Shown here in pieces: positions 1,004 through 30,765 of a stretch of DNA of 64,000 nt. The position numbers and the translations under genes are program-made. The DNA comes from Candidatus Melainabacteria bacterium. Lineage in GTDB: Bacteria; Cyanobacteriota; Vampirovibrionia; 2-02-FULL-35-15. The DNA lies in assembly GCA_023250155.1 (NCBI GenBank), contig JAHFBG010000005.1, positions 89,057 to 153,056 on the forward strand, in the 5' to 3' direction. The notes beneath the pieces are model-generated. The model worked only from the letters and a program-made list of their open reading frames with translations. It was not told the DNA's origin and did no database searches. Numbering within the stretch: position 1 is the stretch's first letter; every line of letters begins with the position of its first letter.

Positions 1004-3406
1004 ATGAATAAAGAAATAAAACAAAAAAACTTTAGAACTTTAGTTGATCTGTTTATTTGCATAGTTATTGTTTTAGTCTTATTTATACCTACAATAAGTA
1101 GACCTTGGATCTCTTATGATGAGAGAGGCATCACTAATGAGTTGTATCTGCCCATACCAACCTCTTTCCAAGAGATATACGAGATTATTGAAAGTTTTGG
1201 TTTAAATTATAGTGTAACTTCTTCAAATACCCTCTACAGTTCAAATTACATAACAAGAACATGTCCACTAAGTACAATCTTAACGCTATCAGTTTTATAT
1301 CTATTTAAGAGCAATTCAATTTACTATCACCTAATGAATTTGTGCTTACATTTAATAACTACTTGTCTTATTTTTATTATTTTAAAGAACTTGCTAAAAG
1401 CCTGTCCAAGACCGTTGATAATTCTTTTAACAATTCTCTGGGGAATTCATCCAGTAGAACTAGAGTCAGTATTATTATCAACAAACTTTGGAGCACTTAT
1501 ATCTTACATGTTCTTTTTTATCTTTCTATTAGACTTCTTAAAAAACAAAGAAAAAAATAAGTCCATTCTTCGACAATGCTTAATACCTCTACTCTTCATG
1601 ATTCCAATGCTCACCAATGAATATATAATCACACTCCCTCTTGTTCTATTTACATTCTCATTCTATGAAAATTATAAAAATAATGATTTTAGAAAAGCTA
1701 TTTCTTTAACCATCATTCACACTAAGCCTTATTTTATTGGACTATTTATATACATACTTTATTTCTTTTTTATATCTCACTACAGTATAAGCCAAACTTC
1801 AAACCATAACTATTTTCTTCTGTTAATAGAACGGGGTTTTTGGCTTTCTCCTCAAGTATTTTTTCACTTGATTAAGCTTGTTTTCTTTCCATTCAAGCTC
1901 TCAATTGATCAAGGAGTCTTTGTAACACTTGGAAAATCTTTATTTGACCCTTATTCTATTTTTTGTATTTTATTTATGTCTATTTGGCTTTTTGTACCAT
2001 TGATATTTTTTCTATCAAAAAGAAAACTAGAAAATCTATTTCTTTTAACCTGGTCTTTTTTCTTTGCTCTATTACCATTTCTACATATTCTTATGCCATC
2101 GTATACCCTTGCTGCAGAACGATATCTTTATGCTCCGTTAGCAATAATGATCATAGGGGTAGGAATCATGTTAAATGAAAACATCCATAAGTACGGGTCC
2201 CGCCCACAAAGTGGGCGAGGCTCGCTCGAAAACCGAGTGGCACGACCCGCACCTACTAGTAAGGGCATACTGCAGTATGCCCTTACACTAATCATAGTGC
2301 TTTGTTTCATGCGCTCATATATTCGAACACAGGACTGGAAAAATGATTTCACTCTTGCCAATTCAACTATTCAAATCACTGACAACTTACTGTTAAAAGG
2401 TATAAGAACACAAGACCTAGGACAAACATTTTTAAAATCAAATCCCAATAATCTTACTAAAGCTTATAAACACTTCACGAAAGCTCAAGAATACTTCTAC
2501 CAAGCCATAGAAAAACTAAAACAAGAAAAAAAAGAAAATCCAAAGATACCACTCATTCTAAAAAGCTATGGACTTGATTATGATTCTCTTAGTGTAAAAG
2601 CTATATATCTAATCTGTGTTGAACCGTTTAACAACAATTCAGAAAATAAAAAAGACTATGAAGATGCCTTGAGAATTCTTATCCCTTATTTAAAACACAT
2701 TAAGATCTTTGATCCACGCACGCTGGAACTCTATGCAAATCTCTTAATAAAAAATAATGATCTAGAAAGTGCAAAAAAGATTTTTCTTTATGCTTACAAT
2801 AAATACCCAACCCAGCAAACATTGCTAATTTCACTAATTCGGTTAAATAGAGATATTGAAAGAAACTTACCCGAAGCAAAAAATTATCTCTTAAAAGCTT
2901 TAAGGTTGTATCCTTATTCAAAAGATATATTGTTCGAAGCAGTAAGATACTATCAGACAGAGAACAATTTAGAAGAATATTCTAGATATGCATATTTATA
3001 TGGACTACGAGCTCACTCTGCTTTTACTTATAGAGAAGCACTTACAGGATTTTTAACTCTTGGAACTCTTGATAAAGCCAAACAAGCTGTAGAAAAACTC
3101 TTGAGACTTGATCCAAGCAATCCAAGAACTTTATATCTTGTAAGTAGTTACTATATAAAAATACAAAACTATGATCTAGCCATTACACTACTAAATCAAG
3201 CATTAACACTTAATCAAAATAAAGACAAACAACTCGAATTTGATTTAAATAACTTATTAGCTAACTTATATCTGGCTCAGGGAAGCATAGAACAAGGCAT
3301 TCACCACATAATAGAAGCATTAAATATAGACAAAGAAAATATAGTCAATAAAAACAAAATGAATGAACTAATTAAAAGATATAGACTAAACCTACATGTA
3401 CCTTAA
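1004..3406 (+). CDS. Polytopic membrane protein with C-terminal TPR repeats, TMTC/PMT-like GT-C glycosyltransferase candidate; carries an in-frame GC-rich repeat insertion
   Basis: N-terminal multi-TM domain with a D-E (SYDERG) motif in the first loop. Conserved FWLSPQVFFHLIKLVFFPF block shared with ORFs 12653..14908 and 31935..33962. C-terminal TPR-like helical repeats. Confidence 0.55.
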   Translation: MNKEIKQKNFRTLVDLFICIVIVLVLFIPTISRPWISYDERGITNELYLPIPTSFQEIYEIIESFGLNYSVTSSNTLYSSNYITRTCPLSTILTLSVLYLFKSNSIYYHLMNLCLHLITTCLIFIILKNLLKACPRPLIILLTILWGIHPVELESVLLSTNFGALISYMFFFIFLLDFLKNKEKNKSILRQCLIPLLFMIPMLTNEYIITLPLVLFTFSFYENYKNNDFRKAISLTIIHTKPYFIGLFIYILYFFFISHYSISQTSNHNYFLLLIERGFWLSPQVFFHLIKLVFFPFKLSIDQGVFVTLGKSLFDPYSIFCILFMSIWLFVPLIFFLSKRKLENLFLLTWSFFFALLPFLHILMPSYTLAAERYLYAPLAIMIIGVGIMLNENIHKYGSRPQSGRGSLENRVARPAPTSKGILQYALTLIIVLCFMRSYIRTQDWKNDFTLANSTIQITDNLLLKGIRTQDLGQTFLKSNPNNLTKAYKHFTKAQEYFYQAIEKLKQEKKENPKIPLILKSYGLDYDSLSVKAIYLICVEPFNNNSENKKDYEDALRILIPYLKHIKIFDPRTLELYANLLIKNNDLESAKKIFLYAYNKYPTQQTLLISLIRLNRDIERNLPEAKNYLLKALRLYPYSKDILFEAVRYYQTENNLEEYSRYAYLYGLRAHSAFTYREALTGFLTLGTLDKAKQAVEKLLRLDPSNPRTLYLVSSYYIKIQNYDLAITLLNQALTLNQNKDKQLEFDLNNLLANLYLAQGSIEQGIHHIIEALNIDKENIVNKNKMNELIKRYRLNLHVP
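2191..2288. repeat. GC-rich nested-palindrome element inserted in frame in a CDS (encodes ..SRPQSGRGSLENRVARPAPTSKGILQYAL..)
   Basis: Local GC spike in AT-rich CDS. Hairpins cgggtc..gacccg, cgcccac-aaa-gtgggcg, and perfect palindrome agggcatactgcagtatgccct. Shares the tcccgccca..ggcgaggctcgct core with the insert in the UbiD gene at 62501..62605. Confidence 0.5.
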
Positions 3407-3466: not shown

Positions 3467-5749
3467 TTAAAAATATTTTAAGACACAATTATGAATTGTA
3501 GCTTGCTGCTTTAAAATATCTTCACTAAAGGCATTAACAAATAACTTGTTTTTCTTAATCGTATGATCTATTTCCATGATCCGCTTCAGATACTTCGTAG
3601 CATCGATTTCACTTTGAAATAAAAGCATTACTTTAGTATTATAAGATTCTGGAAAAATAGCTACTTTTTCACTCAAATATACATTAAAAGTCCAATAAGC
3701 TCTCCTAGGAAAAGTAGAAATATATTTTTCTTGATCTGTAAATTCCAATAACATTGCTTTTGCATTAGGCAAATATTTATCTTCTATCTCAATAAGAGGC
3801 TTTAGCACACCTTCTTGAATTAATTTTTCAATCAATCCTAAATCAACAAATGGAGCTGTTCTACTATCTAAAAACAACCACTTAATATTTAATTCTTTTA
3901 TTAAATAGGGATCTAATGTTTGTAGCAAAGTAATATACGTTGCTTTTCTAGATAAGCTTGAGCCATTAATAGAGTAACAAGGTATCCCTACATAACCAAA
4001 TGGTAAAGAATTTATAGACAATCCACATTCATTGCTTTGTGAATGTTTTTGTAGATACTCAACAATTTCAGTAAATGATTTATCTGCATCTAATTTCCCC
4101 CTTAAGGATAATAATAAATTAGTTGAACTATTAAAAGTACTATCATGTAACCCAAGTTGAATTTTATTTATAAAATCATGATTTAAATAAATAGACGGGG
4201 AAAATATGCCACCTAAGACCAATGTTATAACTGGCTGGGAAATTATTATTACAACAAACAATATATTTTTGAATGTATTTAAAAATCTCACCCGCATTAC
4301 AAATGCCATATTGAATATACACAGTATAAATAAGCAAGTTAAAAGCTCATGTGCAGGATGATAAAGCCTTAAAATGTCTGGGGGAGAAGTCTTTATTAAG
4401 ACAAAAAATGGAATAATATATGAAATCAAAATAAATGACAGAATAAAATTTGTCCAAACAAAATTCTTTCGAATTAACCAGTAAACTACAAATATTGAAA
4501 ATATAAACTGTAACCCTAGTTCACATAAAAAATCCCATGAGAAAAAATTTATAATTCTATGATGATTTAAATCACCAAATCTACCAAAGACCTCAAATTG
4601 AAATGGGTTGGATTTTAGAAGATAGATAAAGAAATCTGGAATATAAGTATAATTTTGACTTATTATTGTAGTTGCTAAACCATTAAAAACTATAATTGCT
4701 ATAAAACAAATCAAACAAATCAGATTCTTAAGAACTAATGACTTGTAATTTGATTGGTTTTTAAATATCAGAAAGAGCATAGAAGACAATAATAAAGAAG
4801 CCATAAAAATATAAAGTATCCACTCTGCTGAATGAAATAACGCCAAAGAGGTAATGAGTATTGGTATTAAGTAAATAAAACTTGAAGTCTTACTTACAAA
4901 GTTAAAATACAAAAAAAGAAGTAGTAAAAAGAACTGAACACCTAAAGTAATTGATGCAAACATAATTCCAGCACTACCTAAATCACTCATGAAGCTTCCA
5001 TGCATTCCAAGAGCACAGACAGATTCAAATAAAGACCAGCTATTAGTAACAGGTTCAATTTTAAAAATATATCGAATTAATGAATCCAGCCAAAGTAAGT
5101 TCCCCGCAAAATAAAAAGCAATACTCCCGGCTAAAGCTTGCAAAAATGATTTTCCCTCTGTAAAAAAATAAACGATGGCAAAGCAAGAGAAAAAGATCAC
5201 AACTACTGAGGTAAGAACTACAAAATGAAATGAATTCAAAACACTAATATGCATGAGCTTAGACAATAATGCACTATATATATCAAAACCATAATGATAT
5301 GGAATAAAAATAGAAGGCCATGAGTATGTCCCTGTGGGAAATTTATCACTTGTAACAAAAAAAGATGCCTGTGAAAGATGGTACCCAAAATCCCAAATAG
5401 ATGACTTATTCAAAGTTAAGTAAGTGAAAAATAAAATAAAGGTACATATTATACTTAAAATTATTAGTTGTTTAAATTCTAATGTATTCTCAAATTTGAA
5501 AACTTTTTCCTTAAAAAAAAGTCCTACTGTAATCGAAATTAAAAATAAAATTAAAATCGATACTAAAGTAGCATTCTGTACACCAATGAAATAAGCCAAG
5601 CTATAAATTAATATTAAAAAAGATGCTGTACCAAATACAAAAGAAAAAGGAAATAAATAAACAATAGAGCTTATATCAAGCAAAGTTCTTAATACAACCC
5701 ATCCAAAAAAAGGTAATATTAAAAATAACAATGAATAAATAGTTATCAT
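3467..5749 (-). CDS. Large polytopic membrane protein, paralog A of a three-member family; putative GT-C-type glycosyltransferase with C-terminal soluble domain
   Basis: 760 aa, many TM helices. Conserved loop (IWDFGYH vs IHDQAWH / IHDKEFH) and C-terminal LDPxLxxELNIKW motif shared with 5803..8121 and 8121..10421. Confidence 0.45.
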   Translation of the reverse strand: MITIYSLLFLILPFFGWVVLRTLLDISSIVYLFPFSFVFGTASFLILIYSLAYFIGVQNATLVSILILFLISITVGLFFKEKVFKFENTLEFKQLIILSIICTFILFFTYLTLNKSSIWDFGYHLSQASFFVTSDKFPTGTYSWPSIFIPYHYGFDIYSALLSKLMHISVLNSFHFVVLTSVVVIFFSCFAIVYFFTEGKSFLQALAGSIAFYFAGNLLWLDSLIRYIFKIEPVTNSWSLFESVCALGMHGSFMSDLGSAGIMFASITLGVQFFLLLLFLYFNFVSKTSSFIYLIPILITSLALFHSAEWILYIFMASLLLSSMLFLIFKNQSNYKSLVLKNLICLICFIAIIVFNGLATTIISQNYTYIPDFFIYLLKSNPFQFEVFGRFGDLNHHRIINFFSWDFLCELGLQFIFSIFVVYWLIRKNFVWTNFILSFILISYIIPFFVLIKTSPPDILRLYHPAHELLTCLFILCIFNMAFVMRVRFLNTFKNILFVVIIISQPVITLVLGGIFSPSIYLNHDFINKIQLGLHDSTFNSSTNLLLSLRGKLDADKSFTEIVEYLQKHSQSNECGLSINSLPFGYVGIPCYSINGSSLSRKATYITLLQTLDPYLIKELNIKWLFLDSRTAPFVDLGLIEKLIQEGVLKPLIEIEDKYLPNAKAMLLEFTDQEKYISTFPRRAYWTFNVYLSEKVAIFPESYNTKVMLLFQSEIDATKYLKRIMEIDHTIKKNKLFVNAFSEDILKQQATIHNCVLKYF

Positions 5750-5802
5750 AAAGTCATATCAATTATTGCTTATTTATAATATAGTGTCAAAATAGGTAAA
5801 CA

Positions 5803-8121
5803 ATGGCACTATCAATCTTAATAACAATCTGTTTTTTTTCAATTTGCACATGTTTTGGATTTTTTTATTTGAGCAAAATTTTGAAAATTAATTCTTTGCT
5901 CTTTTTAATATCATTCTCTACTTCACTAGGCATAAGTTCTTATATTTTTCTTTGTCATCTTTTATCATTTATCATGGGACCTTCAAAAGCTTCAGAGATA
6001 TCTTTATGTGTGTTATTAGCCCTAACTATAATAATATTTCTAACTTGCAAAATAAAAGAAAAACTATTCTTAGAATTTAGCAAAAATAAATTTGGTTACA
6101 TCATATTAATCACAATAATTATAATTGCATGCACTTTTTCTGCAATATATAAGCACAGTATTCATGATCAAGCATGGCATATCCCTCTTGCACAAAGCAT
6201 TTACAAAAACTCTATTTATCCACTAAGAGATTTTTTAAGACCTGATTATGCTCTTATTTATCATTTTGGCGGAGATCTCTTTAGCGGAGCCATAAATCAT
6301 CTTTCTAAAATTGGTATCTTTAATTCTTTTGAGGTAACATCTAGCATTTGTGGTGGCATAACATTCCTAAGCTTGTTTTGTCTAGCTTGGATACTAACTA
6401 AAAAATATAAGTTATCTTTAATTTCAGCATTTTGTTGTTATTTTGGCTCAGGCTTACTCTGGTTAAATGCTCTTAGTACTTATACTACCAAGAACACATC
6501 TAATCTAAGTTTCATAGAAATATTCTTATCGAAAGGTATATATGGGTACATTTATAATTCACCATCTATAACTACTTTTTCATCCTCATCTAGCCTAGGA
6601 TACCCCATCCTGATTTTATGTTTTTTCTTGTTCTACATATTAACTAAGAAAAATAATTTGAAAGATTCCATTCTCTATATTCTTAGCTTGCCTATCTGTT
6701 TATTATCACTTAGCCTTTGTGCAGGCTGGTTATGCTTATCATTTCTAGCCAGTATATCCCTATACTTATTAATAATACTTTTAACAACCCTTATAAAAAA
6801 GAGAAAGATCCCTAGTCTGGCATTCGGCGTTTTTACAATGCTTTTTGTTTTTATTCTTCTGAATATTTTTTTTAGAAATGAAATGTACTCACAAGACCAA
6901 TTTCTTGGACGTTCAAATATTTTCAATATTGTCCTTAAAGAAAATCCATTTACAGTAACTGCTTGGAGCAGTGGGGAGGTATTCACCAAAACTATCTCAT
7001 GTTTTAGCTGGGATTTTATTCAGTCTTTTGGTTTAAGTCTTATACTCTTACCTATAGTTTTTATTTATTTATTAAAGTATAAAAATAAATTCTCTATATT
7101 GCTTTTTCTAGTACCACTTTTAACAATGCCACTGCCCCTATTATTTGAGTTCAAGCTAAGTCCTGTTGACTTTAATAGGCTGTTTGGTTTTGGAAATATC
7201 ATGCTTATACTTTTAACAACAACTGGAATTGGTTTACTTTATAAGAACTTTACTAATAATAAGCTTCTTCTTATAACTTATGTCATGTTCTTTTGTCTCT
7301 CATCACTTGCTGGATTATTAATTGGTGTTTTATTTTGTCCACAAATGTATTCAGATGCAGTCTTTACCAAGACTGCATTGCACAACCTTAGCAAAACAAA
7401 TTCCTTCGATGATTTATTCAAATTTCAAACAGAAATAACTAGAGACGCTCTAATGTCAAAATATTTATTCTCAGATAAATATAAAAGTGAGGTTAACTTC
7501 TTTACAAAATATGGTATGTCTTCTGATGTTGCTATAAGTAGTATCCCAGGTATTCCAATTTATTCTGGAGTTTATACTCTTATTCCATCAATGATGTATG
7601 GGCTAAAGAGTCAAATCTATTCTGGCTTTGACAATATTTATCCAACAGTTATTACTACACTAGATCCACATTTATTAAATGAACTGAATATAAAATGGGT
7701 GGGATATGATGAAGTATCAAAGAAAAAACTTCCTAAAGAAACACTTGACTTTCTAAATGACAGAAATATATTCATGTTGGTTTATTCAAGTCAAATCGAA
7801 CCAGATCCTAAGAATAAAATCTCTTATCAAATATTTCAAGTGAGTAACTTAACAAATCAATTACAAAATTATAAAAGACAAGCAGGATGGATACTGGTAG
7901 ATAAGGAAGGTAACCCAATTGAAATCATACAAAAACTTTATCCTAACATTAGCTTGTTTACTACAGAAAAAAATGCTCTTCAATACTTAAAAAAACTCAT
8001 ATCTCAAAATTTAAATCTTAAAACACAACTAATTACTGCACAACCAATTATTATTAAAATCACGCAAGAACAATTAGCTCAAAGTGGCTTATCTATAAAA
8101 TTAGAGGAGCATATTAATTAA
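5803..8121 (+). CDS. Large polytopic membrane protein, paralog B; putative GT-C-type glycosyltransferase
   Basis: 772 aa. Same architecture and motifs as paralogs A and C. Stop overlaps the next start (TAATG). Confidence 0.45.
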   Translation: MALSILITICFFSICTCFGFFYLSKILKINSLLFLISFSTSLGISSYIFLCHLLSFIMGPSKASEISLCVLLALTIIIFLTCKIKEKLFLEFSKNKFGYIILITIIIIACTFSAIYKHSIHDQAWHIPLAQSIYKNSIYPLRDFLRPDYALIYHFGGDLFSGAINHLSKIGIFNSFEVTSSICGGITFLSLFCLAWILTKKYKLSLISAFCCYFGSGLLWLNALSTYTTKNTSNLSFIEIFLSKGIYGYIYNSPSITTFSSSSSLGYPILILCFFLFYILTKKNNLKDSILYILSLPICLLSLSLCAGWLCLSFLASISLYLLIILLTTLIKKRKIPSLAFGVFTMLFVFILLNIFFRNEMYSQDQFLGRSNIFNIVLKENPFTVTAWSSGEVFTKTISCFSWDFIQSFGLSLILLPIVFIYLLKYKNKFSILLFLVPLLTMPLPLLFEFKLSPVDFNRLFGFGNIMLILLTTTGIGLLYKNFTNNKLLLITYVMFFCLSSLAGLLIGVLFCPQMYSDAVFTKTALHNLSKTNSFDDLFKFQTEITRDALMSKYLFSDKYKSEVNFFTKYGMSSDVAISSIPGIPIYSGVYTLIPSMMYGLKSQIYSGFDNIYPTVITTLDPHLLNELNIKWVGYDEVSKKKLPKETLDFLNDRNIFMLVYSSQIEPDPKNKISYQIFQVSNLTNQLQNYKRQAGWILVDKEGNPIEIIQKLYPNISLFTTEKNALQYLKKLISQNLNLKTQLITAQPIIIKITQEQLAQSGLSIKLEEHIN

Positions 8122-10421
8122 TGTTTTGTTATATAAAGTTTTTTTTATTTTTAATTTCTATTTGTGGCTTTGGTTTTACATCTTTAGTTCAAGTGAATAA
8201 AATAAAATCACTTGTCTTGTTAATTCCATCTTCTATCATAATGGGTACAGCCTCATATTTATTTCTTACTCACATTCTTTCTTTCATTATGGGTCCACAA
8301 TCTGCTTGCATAGTAAGTTTATTAGTTTTAATTGTTTGTACAATAACACTTTTAATTACAAAAAGGAGAGAGTTTTTAAAAATAGAGAATGAATTTACAA
8401 AGAATCAACTTATAAGTTTAATCCTCCTTGCAATATCAATATGTACTCTTACCTGGCTTGCTACAAGCAAGTTTGGTATCCATGACAAAGAATTTCATAT
8501 TCCTGTCGCACTGTCTATATTTCACAACAATATTTATCCTCCAAAAGATTTTTATAGACCTGAATATCTTTTACTCTATCATTATGGGGGAGACATATTA
8601 GCTGGTGCAATAAATCATATTTGCAAGATAGAAATTCTTTCTTGTTATGAATTAACCTCAACAATTTTTAGTGGAACAACATTTTTGTGTTTTTTTGCAC
8701 TGGCTTGGCTAATAACAAATAGTTTTCAAATATCAATTCTTAGTGCATTTTGTACTTATTTTGGCGGTGGACTTTTATGGCTGGACGCTATTATACGATA
8801 TCTCTCAAACACACTACCTGCAAACTCTTATAAATGGGATTTTCTACAAACCCTTTTAAATATTGGCATCCATGGAGGAATAATTGATGCTCCATCTGTT
8901 GGCACATTTGTATCTACAAGCAGCTTTGGTAATCCTTTGCTAATTTTCTCATTGATACTTTTTTGGAAATTCTTCAATGAAACCAATATTAAAATTCAGA
9001 TTGCAAATTTAATCTTTTTAACCATTTCTCTATTTAGTCTGTTCATCACTGCTGAATGGCTTTACATGACGTTTTGGGCAGGAATCATACCATTCTTACT
9101 ATTTCAAGCATTTAAGAGAAAAAATCTTGGTATGAGTGTTGTATTACTTATATCATCAATAATTCTTAATAAAACCCTTGGAAATGCTTTATTCCTACAG
9201 GATTCTATTCATCATCTTGGTCGTGCAAATATTTTTAACATCGGTATAAAAGAAAAATTGTTCTGGGTTACAAGTTGGGGGAGGCTTAGTGATATAACAA
9301 ATGAGTATAGAGAACTATCTTGTTTTTCATGGGATTTTATATCTGAGTTTGGCTTAAGTATGATTCTATTTCCACTTGTAATCATTTATTTATTTAAAGA
9401 AAGAAATAAACTTGCAATTCTTTTATTTCTATGCTCAATATTCACTATGTCACTACCCGTTATTATAGATTTTAAAATAAACCCTGTTGATGCTAATAGA
9501 TTTTTCGGGTTTGGAAACTCCATGTGTGTGATGTTAATTATAATTGGCATAAATAAAATCTTTAATTCCTATACACTTAAAAAGTTTATAGTTAGTGTTA
9601 GCATTATCGGATTTACATTGTCTCCAGTCACAGGACTAGTTCTTAGCTCAATTTTTAGTCCTTATATTTATCTAAGTAAACCGTTTGTCCATCATGTTTT
9701 TAATGAATTGAAAAAAGTTAAATCAATTGCAGAACTACAAGTTAACTTGTTAGCTTTAAATACATTGTTTTCGCAAAATTACAGATTCTATACACTCTAT
9801 CAATTTAAAAATATAATACAATTCTTAAAAGAACATAGCAAGCCAAATGATGTTGCAATTAGTAGCTCTACAGATATTTCTTTATATGCAGGTATTTATA
9901 CTTTAATACCTGCCAATGCATGGCTTTATAAGGATCTTTTATATTCACCATTTGACAGCATTTATTTAACTACACTTACTACTCTAGACTATCATCTATT
10001 AAATGAGCTAAATATTAAGTGGGTCATTCTCAGTAATCGAGCTAAACATAATCTCCCACAAGAAACTCAAAAGAAACTATTAGACAATGATATTTTAAAC
10101 TTAGTTTACATAGATAAGAATAATGATCTTGAAGTATATTACGTAAAAGCTCTAAGGAATATACTTCAAAATACTCCTCGTCAGACCGCTTGGTTATTAG
10201 TAAATAAAACTGGTAACCCTATTGAACCCAACATTCTACAAGAGAATAAAATTTCTTTATTTTCTACTTCATTTAATGCACTATCATATTTAAGCCAATT
10301 AATTAAATTGAAACTTATTGAAAAAAATGAATTGGTCACATCACAAGCTGTTGAGATAAGTAAACTTGAAGAACAAATAAATAAAGGTAATCTAGGAATC
10401 GCCCTGGATAGAAGATTTTAA
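8121..10421 (+). CDS. Large polytopic membrane protein, paralog C; putative GT-C-type glycosyltransferase
   Basis: 766 aa. The YHxGGD..GAINH block and LDYHLLNELNIKWV motif are shared with paralog B. Translationally coupled to paralog B. Confidence 0.45.
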   Translation: MFCYIKFFLFLISICGFGFTSLVQVNKIKSLVLLIPSSIIMGTASYLFLTHILSFIMGPQSACIVSLLVLIVCTITLLITKRREFLKIENEFTKNQLISLILLAISICTLTWLATSKFGIHDKEFHIPVALSIFHNNIYPPKDFYRPEYLLLYHYGGDILAGAINHICKIEILSCYELTSTIFSGTTFLCFFALAWLITNSFQISILSAFCTYFGGGLLWLDAIIRYLSNTLPANSYKWDFLQTLLNIGIHGGIIDAPSVGTFVSTSSFGNPLLIFSLILFWKFFNETNIKIQIANLIFLTISLFSLFITAEWLYMTFWAGIIPFLLFQAFKRKNLGMSVVLLISSIILNKTLGNALFLQDSIHHLGRANIFNIGIKEKLFWVTSWGRLSDITNEYRELSCFSWDFISEFGLSMILFPLVIIYLFKERNKLAILLFLCSIFTMSLPVIIDFKINPVDANRFFGFGNSMCVMLIIIGINKIFNSYTLKKFIVSVSIIGFTLSPVTGLVLSSIFSPYIYLSKPFVHHVFNELKKVKSIAELQVNLLALNTLFSQNYRFYTLYQFKNIIQFLKEHSKPNDVAISSSTDISLYAGIYTLIPANAWLYKDLLYSPFDSIYLTTLTTLDYHLLNELNIKWVILSNRAKHNLPQETQKKLLDNDILNLVYIDKNNDLEVYYVKALRNILQNTPRQTAWLLVNKTGNPIEPNILQENKISLFSTSFNALSYLSQLIKLKLIEKNELVTSQAVEISKLEEQINKGNLGIALDRRF

Positions 10422-10557: not shown

Positions 10558-11679
10558 TTGATTTCATATTTAAAAAATTTAAAAGATAAGGTAGACCGCC
10601 AAGTTGGTTCTGACTTTGTACAAAGAATTCTTCAATACCAAGGTGCAAAAGGATTAGTGAATCTTGTTAATGTTTCACTTACAGCTCTTCAGGAAGAACA
10701 GCCACCAAGATTAAATTATTTGCCCCCTTGTTTATTTGTAGAGGTAACAAACAGATGTAATCTTACATGTCCTACTTGCCAGCTTGGCACTGATGAAGCA
10801 TATAGAGGTTATAACAAAGGTGATATAAGTTTTGAGAACTTTAAAAAAGTCATTGATCAAATACCTTCTCTTGTTTATGTAACACTACAAGGTGTTGGTG
10901 AACCTCTTTTAAATAAAGACATTATGAAAATGATCCGACATTGTACTGATAGAGGAATTGCTACTTATATAAACACAAATGGCACAATACTTACTGAAAC
11001 AAAATCTCGCGAGCTTATTGAAGCTGGCTTATGCAATCTTTCAATATCAGTAAACAGCTTTAATGAAGATGTCTTTGCCAAAACAAGAAGTGGGGCATCT
11101 ATTACAAAAATCGCAGAAAACATTAAAAAATTTATAGAAATAAAAAGAAGTCTAAATTCAAAAAAACCAATTGTTTCTTTTAGATCCATACTAATGAAAG
11201 AAACTGAGCCTCATATGGAGGAATTGATTTTAAAATCAAGTGAGCTTGGAGTAGATGTATTATATATCCAGCTTTTTATCAGTATGATAGCAGACAAAAG
11301 TCTCATGGAATCTTCACTATCAAAAGATGAGGTTGAAAGCTTTTCAGAAAAGCTTGAGCAATGGAAGAAACAAGTTAAGAATCTTGAAATTGTTACTGAA
11401 AGTTTTGGCAAATCATCTAACAATCTAGGACAATGTAAGCTTCCATGGTTCAGTCCAAATGTAACTGCTGAAGGGTATGTTACACCATGCTGCACCATCA
11501 GCAATCCAAGCATTATAAATATGGGCAATGTTTTTGAAACCCCTTTTGAACAAATTTGGAATTCAGAAAAATTTGTAGAGTTTAGAGGGGGCTTCTATAA
11601 GAAGCAGCCTACAGTATGTACAGGCTGTCCTAGCTATATATTAAAATCGGCTTCTAATGGAAAGCCTGTCTACAATTAA
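10558..11679 (+). CDS. Radical SAM enzyme with C-terminal SPASM-type Cys cluster
   Basis: CNLTCPTC (CxxxCxxC) near the N-terminus, GVGEPLL. C-terminal Cys-rich region (CKLPW..PCCTIS..CTGCP). Confidence 0.65.
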   Translation: MISYLKNLKDKVDRQVGSDFVQRILQYQGAKGLVNLVNVSLTALQEEQPPRLNYLPPCLFVEVTNRCNLTCPTCQLGTDEAYRGYNKGDISFENFKKVIDQIPSLVYVTLQGVGEPLLNKDIMKMIRHCTDRGIATYINTNGTILTETKSRELIEAGLCNLSISVNSFNEDVFAKTRSGASITKIAENIKKFIEIKRSLNSKKPIVSFRSILMKETEPHMEELILKSSELGVDVLYIQLFISMIADKSLMESSLSKDEVESFSEKLEQWKKQVKNLEIVTESFGKSSNNLGQCKLPWFSPNVTAEGYVTPCCTISNPSIINMGNVFETPFEQIWNSEKFVEFRGGFYKKQPTVCTGCPSYILKSASNGKPVYN

Positions 11680-11684
11680 GCCTC

Positions 11685-12656
11685 ATGAGAAAATATACTT
11701 TTCTCATTATCAAACTAGTTCTCTTTGTAGGAATTTGTACTTGGATAGTTAAGTCAGTCAATATCACAGAATCACTTAATGTACTAAAAAAAACAAACCT
11801 GCTTTATTACTTAATAGCTTTTTTATTAAGTAATCTATCCAATATTTTTCTAACAATAAAATGGCATCGATTATCAACACCACTAAATATAAAAAGCAAT
11901 TTTTGGGAGTTATTATGTTTGAATTATATTTCCGTCTTTTATAGCATTTTTATTCCTGGGCAAGCCTCTGGAGAGGTGATTAAAGGACTAAAATTGATAA
12001 AAAAAGAGGGGTCTCATCAAACCATCTGGGTACCAATATTTATCGATAAGATAACCAATGTTTTAATCGTGTTTATAATAGGGTCCATTGCTACTTTATT
12101 AGATAGTAATTTCAGAAAAAATACAAGCTTAGTTATTTTACTTATTACAATAACAGCATTACTAGTGCTTTTGACTTTAATTCTATTCAGTGAAAATACA
12201 ACAAAAATTGTAGATTTTCTAAAAAAAATCCTCATTAATATCCTAACTATATTTAAACTGAATACTCAATTTATTAAAAACTTTTCAGTGGATTATTTTG
12301 AAAATTATAAAAAACAAGATTTAATTCTCTTAGAAACATTAATGTGGAGCTTATTTATAAAAATTCCTCCTGTTTTTTCTTTGTATTTTTTAGCTTTGAG
12401 TTTAAATATTGATTTGAATATAATCCAATCCGCATGGCTATTTTCACTTGTTTCTGTCGTAAGCCTATTACCTATAAGTTTTTCAGGGCTTGGTGTTAGA
12501 GAAGGGACTATAATTGTTTTACTATCAAAAATTGGAATACCAAATTCATTCAGCTTGAGTTTGTCTATGCTAATCTTTACTACAGGAATATTAATGGGAC
12601 TAATAGGAGGAGCACTAGAGCTGGTTTCTAGCTTTAGACTATTTAAGTCAAAATGA
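11685..12656 (+). CDS. Integral membrane protein of the flippase-like / lysyl-PG-synthase-TM-like family (UPF0104-like)
   Basis: About 8 TM helices and no soluble domain. Sits in a glycan locus. Its 3' end overlaps the next gene (ATGA). Confidence 0.4.
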   Translation: MRKYTFLIIKLVLFVGICTWIVKSVNITESLNVLKKTNLLYYLIAFLLSNLSNIFLTIKWHRLSTPLNIKSNFWELLCLNYISVFYSIFIPGQASGEVIKGLKLIKKEGSHQTIWVPIFIDKITNVLIVFIIGSIATLLDSNFRKNTSLVILLITITALLVLLTLILFSENTTKIVDFLKKILINILTIFKLNTQFIKNFSVDYFENYKKQDLILLETLMWSLFIKIPPVFSLYFLALSLNIDLNIIQSAWLFSLVSVVSLLPISFSGLGVREGTIIVLLSKIGIPNSFSLSLSMLIFTTGILMGLIGGALELVSSFRLFKSK

Positions 12657-14908
12657 GTAAAAAGTCTTGGTTCATTAACAACTATCACATTTGGATTCCT
12701 CTTCTAATAACATTTTTAATATATGCAATTTCCCTAATCTACGGATTTAGAAACTTCGATGAAGACATTTTAATAAAGAACTTTTACACACATAAAACAT
12801 TTCAAGAATATATTGAGAAATTTTTTTTAGTTCATGCTGGTGGTGCATCTAAAGCACATGGGTTTTCATTTTCAGGGGTACAGAATACTCATGTGTGTTT
12901 TCTTGGAATGCCAACCATTTATCTGGTGGCTTATCTCTTTAAAGCAAATCCTTTCTTATATCATTCATGGAGCTTGCTGTTACACTCTATTGCAGTAGTC
13001 TTTTTGGTGTTATTTGCACATCGATTAACTCAAGATAAAAAGATTGCAATGTTTACAGCATGCGCCTGGACATTACATCCTACAAATGTAGAGTCAATCA
13101 TTTGGGCTACAAACTGGTTACAGTGCTTAGGAGCAGGATTTTATTTTTTCATCTTGTGGTGGATCACATCAATCATTCATAGTGACATGCCGTGGCATGT
13201 CACTACGCGACAAACCTTTTCAATAATGCTTTTCACTACCATAGCAATTTTATTCACCGAGCACACCATTACCATACCAATTGCAATTTTTGTAACTACT
13301 TTCTATCTCTTAAACAATTTAAAACAAAAAAATGCTTTGCAAAATTCTATAAAAACAAGCTTACCATCATTTGTTGTAATATTTAGTTATTGGCTTATAA
13401 GAAATCTAATGATTTCAAAAGCAATACAAACATCTTCAAGTAATGGGTTTCATGAACTCTTGAATAGACTGCTCTTTTTAACTCCACAAGTTTTTATACA
13501 TCAAATAAAGCTTGTTTTATTTCCAGCAAATCTAACAATTGATCAATTGGATTTATTACATTTAGATCAATCATACTTCAGGAGCTATCACCTAATCTGC
13601 CTAATAACAATTGCATTAATTGGAGTAAGTATATTTCTTCTTAGAAAGAGTTTTCCATTCTTATCTTATGGACTACTGATGTACACGGTAACTCTCTTAT
13701 CTTTTATTCAAATCATTCCACTTTACTCTATGTCAGCTGAAAGATACAACTATTTTGGCTCTGCATTTATTGTCCTTGGAATTATAAGTACAATATTTCA
13801 ACTTAATAAATTTAAAAAAACAGCTCCTTATATAGCTATTTTATGGTGTTTAATACTAGGCATAAGAGGTGAGTTTAGAATATGGGACTGGAAGGATAGT
13901 AAAACACTATTCCGTAGCACAATCAACACAAGCAAATCATTCTTAAAGAAAGGGATTTGGACTTATAACCTTGCTATTTGTGAAGAAGATATAGAGAAAA
14001 AGAAAGTATTATTAACAGAGTCAAATATACTGTTGAAGCGGTTTATTCAACAACCTACAAAACGTTATGAGATTGACAAAAGCGTTGGTTTAATCCTTAC
14101 AAAGTATGAATTAGATCCTGAATCACTACTAGCAAAAGCCTCTGACAGAATAGCTACTAACTATGAAATCTTAGGAGATAAAAAAAATCAATTAAAATAT
14201 CTAAACAAAGCATTAAAATACTCAAGACCTAAATCCCAATCCAGAAGCTTAATCTATAAAAATCTTGGGACTTACTATTTTCAAGAAAGTAATTATAAAA
14301 AATCATTAGATTACTATTTTAGGAGTTATGAAATCTCACCTAATCCTACAATTTCATATGCTATAAGCATTTGTTATCTCAAGCTAAACGATTTTAACAA
14401 CTATGAGAAGTACTTAAAAGAAGCAGCTTCTGTAATTTCTCCATATAATGTTTCACCATTTAAAACCTATGGACAGTTTCTAGAACTAGAAAAGCATGAC
14501 TATGCAAATGCTCTTAAATACTATAAGATAGCAAGTTTACTTGAAAACAATGTTGAGCCTTATATCTTACTTAGTTCTCTTTATTTAAAACAAACTCAGA
14601 TTAATAAAGCCTATGAAATTATAAAGAATGGACTTCATAGTTTTCCAGAAAATCCTACACTCATTTATTTTCGAGGAACGGTAAATTTAAATAAAGGTAA
14701 AATTAATGATGGGCTACAAGATTTAATCAATGTAATTAAAAAAACTGATACTTCAAATGATATTAAAATCGAGGCTTGCCATATTCTTGTTAACCTATTT
14801 CTTAACCAAAATGATTATAATAATGCTAAAAAATATAATGATTTGATTCTATCCATAAATCCCAACGATAAAGAAGCTAATGAGTTAAAAAGAACTGAAA
14901 TTTATTGA
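12653..14908 (+). CDS. Polytopic membrane protein with C-terminal TPR repeats, TMTC/PMT-like GT-C candidate
   Basis: FDEDIL in first loop. FLTPQVFIHQIKLVLFPANLTIDQ block paralogous to the 1004 and 31935 ORFs. TPR-like C-terminal half. Confidence 0.55.
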   Translation: MSKKSWFINNYHIWIPLLITFLIYAISLIYGFRNFDEDILIKNFYTHKTFQEYIEKFFLVHAGGASKAHGFSFSGVQNTHVCFLGMPTIYLVAYLFKANPFLYHSWSLLLHSIAVVFLVLFAHRLTQDKKIAMFTACAWTLHPTNVESIIWATNWLQCLGAGFYFFILWWITSIIHSDMPWHVTTRQTFSIMLFTTIAILFTEHTITIPIAIFVTTFYLLNNLKQKNALQNSIKTSLPSFVVIFSYWLIRNLMISKAIQTSSSNGFHELLNRLLFLTPQVFIHQIKLVLFPANLTIDQLDLLHLDQSYFRSYHLICLITIALIGVSIFLLRKSFPFLSYGLLMYTVTLLSFIQIIPLYSMSAERYNYFGSAFIVLGIISTIFQLNKFKKTAPYIAILWCLILGIRGEFRIWDWKDSKTLFRSTINTSKSFLKKGIWTYNLAICEEDIEKKKVLLTESNILLKRFIQQPTKRYEIDKSVGLILTKYELDPESLLAKASDRIATNYEILGDKKNQLKYLNKALKYSRPKSQSRSLIYKNLGTYYFQESNYKKSLDYYFRSYEISPNPTISYAISICYLKLNDFNNYEKYLKEAASVISPYNVSPFKTYGQFLELEKHDYANALKYYKIASLLENNVEPYILLSSLYLKQTQINKAYEIIKNGLHSFPENPTLIYFRGTVNLNKGKINDGLQDLINVIKKTDTSNDIKIEACHILVNLFLNQNDYNNAKKYNDLILSINPNDKEANELKRTEIY

Positions 14909-22226: not shown

Positions 22227-23042
22227 ATGGTCATAACAGAAGAAAAAACAAGCAAATCAATTAACGAAAGAGAAAACGCTGTAAGACAAACAAGCACAAT
22301 AAGCTTAAACCTTTTTAATTATTGTTTTTTGATTTATTATTATTTAGTAAAAGAGATTAAAAAAAATGCTCATTATGCTAAAGGAGTATTGCTTGATGTA
22401 GGATGTGGATCTTCTCCATTTCAAAACTATTTTCTACCTCACATAGAAAAATATTTAAAACACGAACATCCCCTTGCTGTAAAACCAAACATTGAATATG
22501 ACTATCTTTCAGAACTACCAGAAATAAACGCACCCACAAATTCAATAGATACAATAATTTCATTCTCAGTTTTAGAACATGTAAGCGAACCATTTGAAGC
22601 CATAAAGGAGTTTAAAAGAATTTTAAAAGATAATGGAGTATTCATGATATCTGTTCCACAGTATTGGCATCTTCATGAAGAACCCCATGACTATCTTAGA
22701 TTTACAAAACACGTACTGAGAGAAAAAATTACTAAATTAGGTTTTAAGATCTTATACATGAAAGAAGAAGGAAAGTCTTTTGCTACTGTAGGCCAGGCTT
22801 TTTGTAATGCAATTATTTTAATGTTTGAATTAAAACATGTTAAAAATATTGTTAATTTTCTATCAGGAAAAAAAGTAGATAATATTGGGAAAAGTATTAT
22901 TTATGCTATTTACAAATCTCCTTTAATTCTTTTAGCAATTATCCTAATACCACTTATCAATTTAATCTTTTTAACCTTAGATCAAATACTAGGTAGCCCA
23001 AGAGATACTATTGGGTATTTTGTTATTGCAAGAAAAGTTTAA
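22227..23042 (+). CDS. Class I SAM-dependent methyltransferase (type 11-like)
   Basis: LLDVGCGSSPF motif I, FSVLEHV motif. Flanked by two copies of the structured repeat. Confidence 0.55.
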   Translation: MVITEEKTSKSINERENAVRQTSTISLNLFNYCFLIYYYLVKEIKKNAHYAKGVLLDVGCGSSPFQNYFLPHIEKYLKHEHPLAVKPNIEYDYLSELPEINAPTNSIDTIISFSVLEHVSEPFEAIKEFKRILKDNGVFMISVPQYWHLHEEPHDYLRFTKHVLREKITKLGFKILYMKEEGKSFATVGQAFCNAIILMFELKHVKNIVNFLSGKKVDNIGKSIIYAIYKSPLILLAIILIPLINLIFLTLDQILGSPRDTIGYFVIARKV

Positions 23043-23076
23043 ATGTATTAACTGGTATTGCATCTCTGAATACAAA

Positions 23077-23185
23077 AAGCATCTTACACTCCATATTGCC
23101 TTCCCTCAGCCCCTCCGACCATTAACTAGGCGTTAACAGTTCCCGTCGGGACATTCGGGAATGGCAATATTAAATCGTGCTTTTT
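23077..23185 (+). repeat. Copy B of the nested-hairpin repeat element
   Basis: About 85% identical to copy A. Differences are compensatory in stems (agtgcc/ggcact becomes attgcc/ggcaat; ctccc/gggag becomes ttccc/gggaa). Confidence 0.5.
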
Positions 23186-23251
23186 GTATTTAGTTATTTA
23201 GCCATCATTGACTTTTTAACAGACCCTGTAATTTGTTGTATATTAATATCC

Positions 23252-24346
23252 ATGAAAGCAGTTATTCTAAGCGGTGGTTCTGGACAAAGATTAGCACCAC
23301 TTACAAACACAATTACAAAACAACTTTTACCTGTTGCAAATAAACCAACATTGTTTCACATATTAGATCTAATCAAAGAAGAAACGCCAATAAAATCTAT
23401 CTGTGTCGTTGTCAGTGAAGAGTATGGTCATAAGGTAAAAGAAACCCTCTTGAACTCAGAACATGCAAAATACTTTGAGTTTGATTTTGTGTTTCAAGAC
23501 AAACCCCTTGGTTTAGCTCATGCTGTGCAGATTACAAATATGCATATGGGTGAAGAACAATTTCTTATGTTTCTTGGAGACATCTTAATAAACAAAGGAG
23601 AGCTAAAAGCTGCCTATGAACAGTTTATAAAAAACAAACCTGAAAGTCTTGTTTTAGTAAAAGAGGTTGAAGACCCAAGACCATATGGAATAGCTGAAGT
23701 TACAAATGGCAAAGTCACAAAGCTTGTAGAAAAGCCTCAGGACCCTAAATCTAATTTATGCTTGTCTGGAATTTATCTTTTTAATCCTTCCATTTTTTAT
23801 GCTATTGCAAATATAAAACCTAGCTATAGAGGTGAACTTGAAATAACGGATGCTGTGGATTTTCTAATACAACAAAAAAACACAGTAGAGTACTACATTA
23901 TAAAAAGCTGGTGGTTTGATGTAGGTACACCTGAAAACATGTTAAAAGGTAATGAGGTTTTATTAAATAACATTTCAAATACCATTAATTCAAAACTTAA
24001 CAATACTGTCAAAATACAAGGAAAAGTATCGATAGATCAAAATGTCATCATTGAAGATTCTGAAATAGTAGGTCCTGTAATCATTGCAAAGAATGCTCAC
24101 ATAAAGGGTTGTAAGATAGGTCCTTATGTAAGCCTTGGTGAAAGTGTCACATTAAAAAACACAAAAGTTGAAAACTCAATAATTAGAGAAAACTCTAGGG
24201 TAAAAAACTTCACAAGGATAATTTCAAATAGTGTTCTTGGAAAAAATGTAGAATTGGCTCTTGAAGACAATACTCAAGCAGTAAGCGGAAACAGCAAAAA
24301 GGTAAAAGTAATTTTAGGAGATGATACAAAATGCACATCATTGTAA
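23252..24346 (+). CDS. Sugar-1-phosphate nucleotidylyltransferase, RmlA-like long form with C-terminal left-handed β-helix
   Basis: MKAVILSGGSGQRLAPLT…KQLLPVANKP N-terminus, G1P-thymidylyltransferase-like. C-terminal hexapeptide-repeat region. Likely true start at Met 23252, not 23177. Confidence 0.7.
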   Translation: MKAVILSGGSGQRLAPLTNTITKQLLPVANKPTLFHILDLIKEETPIKSICVVVSEEYGHKVKETLLNSEHAKYFEFDFVFQDKPLGLAHAVQITNMHMGEEQFLMFLGDILINKGELKAAYEQFIKNKPESLVLVKEVEDPRPYGIAEVTNGKVTKLVEKPQDPKSNLCLSGIYLFNPSIFYAIANIKPSYRGELEITDAVDFLIQQKNTVEYYIIKSWWFDVGTPENMLKGNEVLLNNISNTINSKLNNTVKIQGKVSIDQNVIIEDSEIVGPVIIAKNAHIKGCKIGPYVSLGESVTLKNTKVENSIIRENSRVKNFTRIISNSVLGKNVELALEDNTQAVSGNSKKVKVILGDDTKCTSL

Positions 24347-25314
24347 CTGGTGGTTTAGGTTTTATTGGTTCAAACTTCATTAGACATCTCATCAATGAGA
24401 ATAAAGATATTTTCATTACAAATATTGATGCCCAGACTTATGCAGGAAGGCTTGATAATTTACAAGATATTGAAAAACACAAGAACTATCAGTATTTTAA
24501 GGGAAACATTCAAGACTATGATTTCATTCAAAATATAGTTAGAACTTATAAGCCTGATGCCATAATTAATTTTGCTGCTGAAACCCATGTAGACAGAAGC
24601 ATTACAAAAGCACAACCTTTTATTGAAACAAATATTATTGGCACTCACACGCTGCTTGAAGTAGCACTTAAAGAAAAGCTAAAAAAATACATCCAAATAA
24701 GCACTGATGAAGTCTATGGCTCAATTAATCCACCAGACAAATTCACTGAAACAAATTTAATCAAACCAAATAGTCCATACTCAGCCAGCAAAGCCTCAGC
24801 TGATCACTTAGTCAGAGCATACAATAAAACATATGGCTTAAACACTGTAATCATAAGATGTTCAAACAATTTTGGTCCTTATCAATTCCCTGAAAAAGTG
24901 ATCCCATTATTTATTTCCAATGCTATAGAAAATAAAAAAGTCCCTGTCTATGGTGATGGTTTAAATGTAAGAGATTGGATTTATGTCTTAGATTTCTGTT
25001 CAGCTATTTCACTGATTCTTGAAAAAGGGAAATCTGGTGAAGTCTATAATGTAGGTGGTGATTATGAAACAACAAACCTAGAACTCACAAAAACTATTCT
25101 TAAAAGACTGGAAAAAACAGAAGAATTAATAAACTATGTAGAAGATAGACTAGGACATGATCGTAGATATGCCATGGACACTACAAAAATCAGCACAGAA
25201 CTTGGCTGGAAGAAAAAACACGATTTTAATGAAGCACTAGATTTAACTATAGATTGGTATAAGAAAAACACAGTGTGGGTTGAAAGAAGAACTAAAGCAT
25301 CTGTAGTTAGATAA
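24331..25314 (+). CDS. rfbB: dTDP-glucose 4,6-dehydratase
   Basis: TGGLGFIGSNF Rossmann motif, STDEVYG, YSASKASADHLVRAY catalytic YxxxK. Overlaps the upstream gene by 16 nt. Confidence 0.85.
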   Translation: MHIIVTGGLGFIGSNFIRHLINENKDIFITNIDAQTYAGRLDNLQDIEKHKNYQYFKGNIQDYDFIQNIVRTYKPDAIINFAAETHVDRSITKAQPFIETNIIGTHTLLEVALKEKLKKYIQISTDEVYGSINPPDKFTETNLIKPNSPYSASKASADHLVRAYNKTYGLNTVIIRCSNNFGPYQFPEKVIPLFISNAIENKKVPVYGDGLNVRDWIYVLDFCSAISLILEKGKSGEVYNVGGDYETTNLELTKTILKRLEKTEELINYVEDRLGHDRRYAMDTTKISTELGWKKKHDFNEALDLTIDWYKKNTVWVERRTKASVVR

Positions 25315-30752: not shown

Positions 30753-30765
30753 AAATAGTTTCTAC

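Follow-up and report, generated by a model that had tools for sequence, protein, structure and literature searches.

Three paralogous membrane proteins with a predicted GT-C fold in a conserved operon of Melainabacteria

Glycans on the outer face of cell envelopes are built by GT-C enzymes, and new sequence families of these enzymes have often been recognised only after biochemical work, as was the case for GT136 in 2024. Melainabacteria, the non-photosynthetic sister group of the cyanobacteria, have few cultured members. The mycobacterial arabinofuranosyltransferases AftA (8if8) and AftB are GT-C_A enzymes that use decaprenyl-P-arabinose donors. Enzymes of the GT-C_A class are recognised by two juxtamembrane helices within the first long extracytoplasmic loop, the first of them with a conserved and essential Asp at its tip, and by the TM2 and kinked TM3 that come next; AftB has an 11-TM layout (PMC12041299). 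In known three-component periplasmic glycosylation systems the gene for the GT-C enzyme lies beside lipid-sugar flippase and GT2 genes (PMC11127046); examples are GtrA/GtrB/Gtr-GT-C, ArnC/ArnEF/ArnT and the Citrobacter GT136 system.

The locus examined here lies in a 64,000-nucleotide stretch of DNA (the window) from a Candidatus Melainabacteria bacterium. Its three open reading frames of 760–772 aa (genes A, B and C), which an earlier note had taken for paralogs, were recovered with the exact coordinates listed in Table 1 and showed pairwise identities of 24-43%. B and C were 43% identical over their full length (E = 0), A and C 27% (E 1e-60) and A and B 24% (E 3e-35), and the three are full-length paralogs with a similarity far beyond chance. 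The B/C junction reads ...AAT TAA TG..., with the stop codon at 8119-8121 and the ATG at 8121-8123; the TAATG overlap reported for this tandem pair is real and suggests that B and C are translationally coupled. A promoter and terminator scan revealed no enrichment compared with shuffled sequences, the single strong -35/-10 match being upstream of gene A. Gene C is the universal copy in the family and adjoins the radical SAM gene in every case, B-type orthologs (about 50-54% identity) are present in a minority of genomes, and A-type orthologs (35-46% identity) were found in two other loci (L006 and L008) at the same position and on the opposite strand.

Table 1. Positions in the window of the three paralogs, of selected elements within them and of neighbouring genes.
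Feature	Position	Strand	Remarks
T1, polytopic membrane protein	1004..3406	+	800 aa; C-terminal TPR repeats; 'YDE' just past TM1
Gene A, divergent paralog	3467..5749	-	760 aa; predicted GT-C-fold family
Gene B, tandem paralog	5803..8121	+	772 aa
TAATG stop/start overlap of B and C	8119..8123	+	read directly off the sequence
Gene C, tandem paralog	8121..10421	+	766 aa
Gene C residues 119-171, first long loop (EL1-like)	8475..8633	+	predicted periplasmic; two juxtamembrane helices, 123-136 and 156-168
D122 codon of gene C	8484-8486	+	one residue ahead of helix 123-136, at its tip
Gene C residues 512-766, C-terminal alpha/beta domain	9654..10418	+	predicted periplasmic; specific to core family
LDxxLLxELNxKW motif in C-terminal domain of gene C	9984-10025	+	
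Radical SAM/SPASM enzyme	10558..11679	+	75-86% identity across genomes; always directly downstream of C-type gene
PF03706 / TIGR00374 'flippase-like domain' membrane protein	11685..12656	+	conserved operon member
T2, membrane + TPR protein	12653..14908	+	751 aa; conserved operon member
Methyltransferase, RmlA (glucose-1-P thymidylyltransferase), RmlB (dTDP-glucose 4,6-dehydratase)	22227..25314	+	

In the structure model of gene C (pLDDT 91.2), residues 1-511 form about 14 membrane spans and are followed by an alpha/beta domain of ~255 residues, a refinement of the previous description of polytopic membrane proteins with a C-terminal soluble domain. In the model, TM 94-118 is followed by D122, helices 123-136 and 156-168 and TM 172-199, after which come a kinked TM (202-213/219-229, split at a conserved FGGGL), a loop, four TMs, a 49-residue loop, another four TMs and the soluble domain. 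The loop and helix hallmarks of GT-C_A are present, equivalence being judged by the order of the elements, and the polytopic fold of the model could be superposed on solved GT-C enzymes. The assignment of A, B and C as GT-C-fold integral-membrane proteins of the GT-C_A class, as predicted from the model, is solid, and the GT-C reading offered in the earlier note is supported both by the fold and by an AftB-like 11-TM layout behind three extra N-terminal TMs. A, B and C resemble AftA and AftB in this core layout, whereas they differ from them in sequence (about 9-12% identity, no sequence-level match), in the three additional TMs, in the signature (D-x3-H plus YH instead of DD), in the C-terminal domain and in their host group, which is Melainabacteria and not Actinobacteria; genes of an arabinan pathway are absent. 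When positive charges were counted in 48 sequences of the family, the short loops predicted to be inside carried 10.9 K+R per protein compared with 0.96 for those outside, and this charge bias assigns the loop with D122, like the C-terminal domain, to the periplasm. A point against the GT-C reading is that the putative catalytic loop follows four TMs and not one, so that an unusual N-out topology, deduced solely from the charge bias, is needed.

Judging from its secondary-structure position and its conservation, D122 would be the counterpart of the catalytic Asp; it was found in 47/48 core members, in at least 90% of 121 distant members and in A, B and C. Among these 121 sequences, with identities down to 16%, only P140 and H154 were invariant, and G18, G42, D122, Y153 and R460 were at least 90% conserved; equivalents of all these residues are kept in the three paralogs. 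The first loop of gene C also contains the conserved H126, Y153, H154 and D158. Of the sequence blocks that the earlier note assigned to all three proteins, 'HD' and 'GAINH' occur in B and C only, A having WD and lacking GAINH, whereas D122-x3-H126 and Y153-H154-x-G156-x-D158 are kept throughout (D120/H124 and Y151-H152-x-G-x-D156 in gene A, which also retains the residues aligned to K377, S403-W404 and R460 of C). Sites at which the types diverge include N136S, D143T and R368I in A and D222N and E409S in B. That the loop departs from the classic DE was correctly noted before, as it reads D-x3-H. The C-terminal motif ascribed to the three paralogs is present in B (TLDPHLLNELNIKWV), C (TLDYHLLNELNIKWV) and A (TLDPYLIKELNIKWL) and is conserved family-wide, with D623, E629, N631, K633 and W634 kept in 44-48 of 48 sequences.

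The family had been regarded as unplaced, which does not wholly hold given that gene C and 37/48 relatives match Pfam DUF2298 (PF10060). Gene C scored 34.1 bits, with a gathering cut-off of 27.8 bits, and the relatives matched at E <= 0.01 with no other Pfam family matched among the 48; A and B gave no match at E <= 0.1. Of the wider superfamily, 9/10 tested members did not match either. The alignment covers only HMM positions 7-201 of 488, corresponding to the N-terminal half with D122 and the YH loop. As judged by these profile matches, the family appears to be a distant branch of DUF2298, which we take to be placed by Pfam in the GT-C clan. No functional study was found in the literature on DUF2298, PF10060, TIGR03662 or IPR018746, none of A, B and C matched NCBIfam, and the family, with several hundred 50%-identity clusters in metagenomes, has no function in any database. 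Sequence searches of PDB with the 48- and 121-sequence profiles returned nothing relevant, the YfhO (PF09586) and AftA (GT85) profiles matched none of the 48 members, and at the level of sequence neither a characterised GT-C family nor a solved structure was matched, which counts against the GT-C reading. Comparison of the family profile by hhalign with the window's own PMT_2 protein, or with T2 as a single sequence, was not significant; the profile-profile comparison with the T2 family gave a weak, register-consistent alignment of helix 172-199 with T2-family TM2 (Prob 56%, E 1.2e-4). A fold search with T2 was swamped by TPR matches.

A, B and C are probably GT-C_A glycosyltransferases, in a family characterised by three extra N-terminal TMs, an AftA/AftB-like 11-TM core and a periplasmic alpha/beta domain, and most likely they face the periplasm and use lipid-linked sugar donors. 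Support for the use of such donors is contextual and comes from the flippase-like gene, from RmlA and RmlB and from the GtrA and GT2 genes beside distant relatives. We infer the activity, donor, acceptor and single-residue roles as follows. A polyprenyl-phosphate-linked sugar would be synthesised in the cytoplasm and carried across the membrane, probably by the co-operonic PF03706 protein, a candidate flippase for the lipid-linked sugar. K377 and R460, joined in B and C by R368, would bind the donor phosphate. D122, located at the tip of juxtamembrane helix 123-136, would act as catalytic base or nucleophile for sugar transfer, and the C-terminal domain would hold the acceptor. The sugar would probably be derived from dTDP-4-keto-6-deoxyglucose through the RmlA and RmlB of the operon, and the methyltransferase and the radical SAM enzyme might modify it further. 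C would be the core enzyme; A and B would be accessory copies, probably with different acceptors or linkages.

Alternatively, these proteins might work in the manner of STT3, AglB and PglB (GT66), with a glycan that has been assembled beforehand on a polyprenyl-diphosphate carrier being passed on as a whole to protein or to some other acceptor. We consider such an oligosaccharyltransferase-like role unlikely: WWD[YFWN]G, representing the WWDYG motif, was found in 0/48 sequences, with no loose version past residue 500, the Pfam STT3 profile matched none of the 48 members, and the order of loops and TMs is closer to the 11-TM core of AftA/AftB than to the 13-TM core of the OSTs. A GT-C-like but non-catalytic lipid-binding subunit, comparable to PIG-U/GAB1, or a polymerase or ligase of the Wzy/WaaL type, is more improbable still. 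The strong conservation at 16% identity of the acidic residue at the tip of the first juxtamembrane helix and of basic residues argues for catalysis, and catalytic GT-Cs outscored PIG-U by far in the fold comparison. As for Wzy, Wzy_C and O-antigen ligase, no Pfam match was obtained in the 48 members and none was among the fold matches listed, and the earlier view that these are not Wzy/WaaL proteins stands.

Were the proteins polytopic transporters or permeases that carry a substrate-binding domain in the periplasm, this would account for the many TM helices and the soluble C-terminal domain and for nothing more; such an identity, under which the GT-C proposal was to have fallen, is effectively refuted by the fold evidence and has a negligible chance of being correct. 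Glycosyltransferases similar to PMT, PMT_2 or ArnT (GT39, GT83) were also rejected as candidates: compared with PMT, TMTC and ArnT (GT39, GT105, GT83), A, B and C have no Pfam PMT or PMT_2 match, no DE pair after TM1 and no TPR or MIR domains.

The preferred glycosyltransferase reading is also supported by the gene neighbourhood. An operon with the order TM+TPR proteins, A/B/C family (1-3 copies), radical SAM/SPASM, PF03706 flippase-like protein, TM+TPR protein, methyltransferase, RmlA and RmlB is conserved in about 8 MAGs of groundwater Melainabacteria. As in the three-component systems, a GT-C gene lies beside a putative flippase and nucleotide-sugar genes, and distant relatives show the layout of these systems: a GtrA-family gene lies immediately upstream of them, and genes for GT2, DegT and radical SAM proteins are close by. 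The operon differs from these systems in that its flippase candidate is a PF03706 protein and not GtrA, SMR or MATE, in that the conserved operon contains no polyprenyl-phosphate GT2, a point against the proposed role, and in that several TM+TPR proteins and a radical SAM/SPASM enzyme belong to it as fixed components. That the family recurs beside radical SAM enzymes and methyltransferases hints at unusual sugars.

It is conceivable, though less likely than not, that the A/B/C family, the highly conserved radical SAM/SPASM enzyme, the PF03706 protein and the expanded GT-C-like TM+TPR proteins form an undescribed periplasmic glycosylation pathway of the non-photosynthetic Melainabacteria. This pathway would attach a 6-deoxyhexose, tailored by radical SAM chemistry and methylation, to proteins or glycans of the envelope, and the 14-TM D-x3-H/YH enzymes would make up a new CAZy GT family. 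If true, this would also provide a first function for DUF2298-like proteins. To a specialist, finding a GT-C enzyme in a glycan locus will come as no surprise, and no concept is challenged. What is gained for a dark family is a confident fold, a topology, a conserved operon and a set of candidate catalytic residues, and with them a first way into the study of how Melainabacteria glycosylate their envelope.

Proteins of the T1 type occur in 1-4 tandem copies upstream of the A/B/C family in other genomes, and T1 may be a GT-C+TPR protein. In the T2 family D36 is invariant and E37 at least 90% conserved, both after TM1. The methyltransferase, RmlA and RmlB genes directly follow T2 in other genomes and are here parted from it by an insertion (15019-21754). 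An ArnC/PgfS-like GT2 gene is present in the window at 29832-30752, about 15 kb from the operon, adjoined by a WecE-type transaminase gene; in other genomes neither gene was found near the operon within the flanks examined. A small precursor-peptide ORF was sought between C and the radical SAM gene, where the gap is only 136 nt here; the larger gap in L006 and L008 is occupied by a hexapeptide acetyltransferase-like gene and not by a peptide.

Genes A, B and C, which encode three polytopic membrane proteins, were found as ORFs at exactly the coordinates proposed in an earlier note, and their proposed paralogy was found to be full-length, with identities of 43% for B/C, 27% for A/C (E 1e-60) and 24% for A/B (E 3e-35). 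The arrangement of one divergent and two tandem copies was likewise as described: a spacer of 53 nt separates A and B, which are read away from each other, and in the TAATG overlap of B and C one base is common to the TAA of B and the ATG of C (...AAT TAA TG...). The spacer holds the top sigma-70-like match of the 7.4-kb region scanned (TTGACA-17-AATAAT, 11/12, facing A), a region with no overall enrichment of such matches.

Coordinates of genes in the window (nucleotides) and of structural elements in the model of C (residues).
Feature	Position	Strand	Remarks
Gene A	3467-5749	(-)	760 aa
Gene B	5803-8121	(+)	772 aa
Gene C	8121-10421	(+)	766 aa
Methyltransferase, TM+TPR, WecE-type dTDP-4-amino-4,6-dideoxyhexose transaminase, ArnC/PgfS-like GT2	29832-34915	(-)	gene string
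Two tandem PMT_2-type paralogs	45534-47270, 43886-45565	(-)	membrane proteins, 37% identical
Second GT2, like dolichyl/undecaprenyl-phosphate hexose transferases	47260-48153	(-)	overlaps first PMT_2-type gene
Three N-terminal TMs	2-24, 31-57, 59-80		model
Core TM1	94-118		model; then G-I-H-D122
JM1	123-136		model
JM2	156-168		model
TM2	172-199		model
TM3	202-213/219-229		model; split at conserved FGGGL
35-residue loop with short helix, then four TMs	TMs within 265-354		model
49-residue loop, beta-hairpin	after four TMs 265-354		model; R368, K377, S403-W404
Last four TMs	404-511		model; R460 among them
Alpha/beta domain	C-terminal, after TMs 404-511		model; 255 residues

The description of the family as unplaced does not hold in full: A and B had no match in the Pfam scan, but C scored 34.1 bits against Pfam DUF2298 (PF10060; cut-off 27.8; residues 48-238 aligned with positions 7-201 of the 488-position HMM), and 37 of the 48 core-family members matched DUF2298 at E ≤ 0.01. 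None of the 48 matched any other GT-C family, the NCBIfam scan gave no match for A, B or C, and no solved structure was found with either the 48-sequence or the 121-sequence (wider superfamily) profile. Judged by sequence, A, B and C appear to belong only marginally to the function-less DUF2298, which we take to be part of Pfam's GT-C clan. Membership in GT66, GT39/83, YfhO, AftA and Wzy/WaaL was rejected, the proteins having failed the sequence and motif tests.

The fold of C was closest to AftA (13.4, 462 residues aligned), ArnT (13.1), Pmt4 (12.6), STT3B (12.5) and AglB (12.1), followed in order by ALG12, PglB, Pmt2, PIG-M, AftD, ALG9, DPY19, Pmt1, ALG3, ALG6, AftB and PIG-U. Foldseek was in agreement, returning STT3A (E 8e-7), yeast Stt3, DPY19, AftA (TM-score 0.43/0.51), PglB, AglB, Pmt4 and AftD, and both comparisons thus support the earlier proposal of GT-C-like proteins. 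Given that the fold matches were GT-C enzymes and that transporters came only at Foldseek probabilities ≤ 0.15, the alternative of transporters or O-antigen polymerases, also raised in the earlier note, was rejected. Enzymes of the GT-C_A class are described as having a conserved TM1-7 module in which TM1 and TM2 are separated by a pair of juxtamembrane helices, the first of them (JM1) with an essential Asp at its tip, together with a kinked TM3 and Arg residues that hold the donor phosphate (PMC12041299). A, B and C show every structural GT-C_A feature tested, and once the extra N-terminal helices are set aside, the predicted layout of C corresponds loop for loop to that reported for AftB, with 11 TMs and a periplasmic domain. 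Across the 48 sequences, the short loops carried 10.9 K+R per protein on the predicted cytoplasmic side versus 0.96 outside. A position on the periplasmic side is therefore expected for the loops with D122 and the beta-hairpin and for the C-terminal domain, and an outside position for the N-terminus.

Of the shared blocks reported previously (xHD…H and YHxGGD..GAINH), D122-x3-H126 and Y153-H154-x-G156-x-D158 (residue numbers of C, which also apply to B) are common to all three proteins, whereas 'HD' and 'GAINH' occur only in B and C; the reported C-terminal motif is an LDxxLLxELNxKW block conserved family-wide. In the 121-sequence alignment (identity down to 16%), P140 and H154 are the sole invariant residues and G18, G42, D122, Y153 and R460 are at least 90% conserved. 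Since G18 and G42 sit in the extra N-terminal helices, the N-terminal extension characterises the superfamily as a whole. D122, H126, Y153, H154, D158, K377, S403, W404, R460 and the C-domain residues are kept in A, B and C, and departures at otherwise conserved positions are few (N136S, Y139F, D143T, R368I and N466H in A; D222N and E409S in B), a pattern suggesting that all three are probably active yet non-equivalent.

In a word-indexed search, 71 relatives of full length were found (identity 39-100%), and the only name that any source gave them was 'hypothetical protein' from Candidatus Melainabacteria MAGs. When 1.8 billion cluster representatives were searched exhaustively with a profile, 512 matches were obtained at E ≤ 1e-3, including ~20 core-family clusters and several hundred proteins of ~640-750 aa that match the membrane part only (profile positions 1 to ~510); the C-terminal domain is therefore specific to the core family. 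Ten of these distant relatives were tested; all ten are unnamed or 'hypothetical', and nine had no match in the Pfam scan. Among 84 family proteins the nearest paralog was C for 76, B for 5 and A for 3 (searches seeded with C), which points to C as the core copy and to A and B as older accessory lineages with their own orthologs. Tandem expansion recurs elsewhere in the superfamily, given that one distant relative (L021 1-9231; genome of 3.6 Mb, 56% GC) occurs as three tandem paralogs of ~1075 aa each, with no glycan genes nearby. The species-level genome scan gave eight loci, seven from groundwater Melainabacteria MAGs and one labelled 'uncultured Gammaproteobacteria'. The latter (L008, CAZRTB010000002.1) has 27.9% GC and a complete Melainabacteria-type operon including an A-type copy, and its label probably reflects a mistake in binning or taxonomy.

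The conserved gene order is T1-like TM+TPR (1-4 tandem), A/B/C family (a single copy in five loci, two copies each in L007 and L008, and three copies each in L006 and the window), radical SAM/SPASM, PF03706/TIGR00374 ('flippase-like'), T2 (a second type of TM+TPR protein), methyltransferase, RmlA and RmlB, the last two exceeding NCBIfam cut-offs. The radical SAM/SPASM gene (10558-11679 (+)) is the best-conserved member (75-86% identity across MAGs, against 43-60% for the GT-C genes of the same MAGs), and the nearest solved relatives of its product include the sugar-modifying BtrN, BlsE and DesII and, besides these, PqqE and the lipid-crosslinking GDGT-MAS. In the window the otherwise contiguous operon is split between T2 and the methyltransferase by ORFs at 15019-21754, namely two large soluble paralogs of 787 and 939 aa (35% identity across 610 aa, E 1e-94) and an ORF of 281 aa on the reverse strand; none of the three has a Pfam match or a counterpart in the other loci. 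L006 (12318-12893 (-)) and L008 (12304-12858 (-)) carry a 184-191-aa gene on the opposite strand between the C-type and radical SAM genes, which by eye looks like a hexapeptide-repeat acetyltransferase; the corresponding 136-nt gap of the window holds no such gene.

TM+TPR proteins are encoded at 1004-3406 (T1), 12653-14908 (T2) and 31935-33962, with up to four tandem copies in related MAGs, and the Pfam scan gave no match for the TM parts of these three. An acidic pair directly follows TM1 ('YDE' in T1; 'FDED' with invariant D36 in T2), and in profile-profile comparison the T2 family aligned weakly with the core family in the same register, helix 172-199 of C falling on the second TM of T2 (Prob 56%, E 1.2e-4). 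The TM+TPR proteins are probably TMTC/PMT-like GT-C+TPR enzymes. The ORF at 48-1001 is probably the tail of another T1-like copy cut by the window edge, because its match is limited to the TPR end of T1-like genes.

The best-supported reading is, we infer, that A, B and C are periplasm-facing glycosyltransferases using lipid-linked donors. D122 would be the catalytic base or nucleophile, the donor phosphate would be held by K377 and R460, joined by R368 in B and C, the sugar site, or possibly a metal site, would be shaped by H126, Y153, H154 and D158, and the C-terminal domain would bind the acceptor. The donor would most likely be a polyprenyl-monophosphate 6-deoxyhexose derivative that starts from the operon's RmlA and RmlB, is modified by the methyltransferase, perhaps also by the radical SAM enzyme, and is flipped by the PF03706 protein; a weak point of this reading is that the conserved operon itself contains no polyprenyl-phosphate GT2. 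The main rival, OST-like enzymes with a diphosphate donor, agrees with the first place of STT3 in the Foldseek ranking and with an AglB-like C-domain, but we consider it unlikely, the WWDYG motif being absent from the whole family. A, B and C would work in the same way as GT-C_A enzymes of the AftA/AftB/ArnT type. Their distinguishing marks are the additional three TMs at the N-terminus, for a total of 14, a signature of D-x3-H with an invariant YH, a C-terminal domain of their own and, as fixed partners, a radical SAM/SPASM enzyme and TM+TPR proteins. Once their activity has been demonstrated, they would probably be the first members of a new CAZy family, though not a new kind of system.

The remainder of the window comprises a large glycan region followed by housekeeping genes. 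The WecE-type transaminase (605 bits versus a cut-off of 375) adjoins the ArnC/PgfS-like GT2, and their gene string, which was not found beside the operon in other genomes, represents an Arn-like pathway leading to a lipid-linked aminodeoxysugar, and it could supply donor for the GT-C enzymes. The region also holds a GT4, a carbamoyltransferase and several methyltransferases, and the genes at 43886-48153 (-) have the look of another, separate three-component-like set. Genomic context was sampled for six distant relatives. P0098 lies between GT2, B12-radical SAM, DegT and GtrA on one side and Wzx-like, GT2 and epimerase on the other, with PF03706 nearby, and P0086 comes directly after the gene for a GtrA-domain protein of 718 aa, two GT2 genes and one epimerase gene also lying upstream. 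Three-component periplasmic glycosylation is defined by such a GtrA/GT2/GT-C layout (PMC11127046). P0215 neighbours NDP-sugar genes, methyltransferases, a GT4, a Wzx-like gene and PF03706, P0089 is preceded by genes for a GT2, a nucleotidyltransferase and a B12-radical SAM enzyme, and the contexts of P0218 and P0234 were uninformative; B12-type radical SAM genes adjoin two distant relatives (loci L014 and L019). The 989-aa product of the gene at 57255-60224 (+) bears seven Ig-like repeats of the He_PIG/PKD type; it is therefore probably a surface protein and, as pure speculation, conceivably an acceptor for glycosylation by the neighbouring TPR-bearing enzymes.
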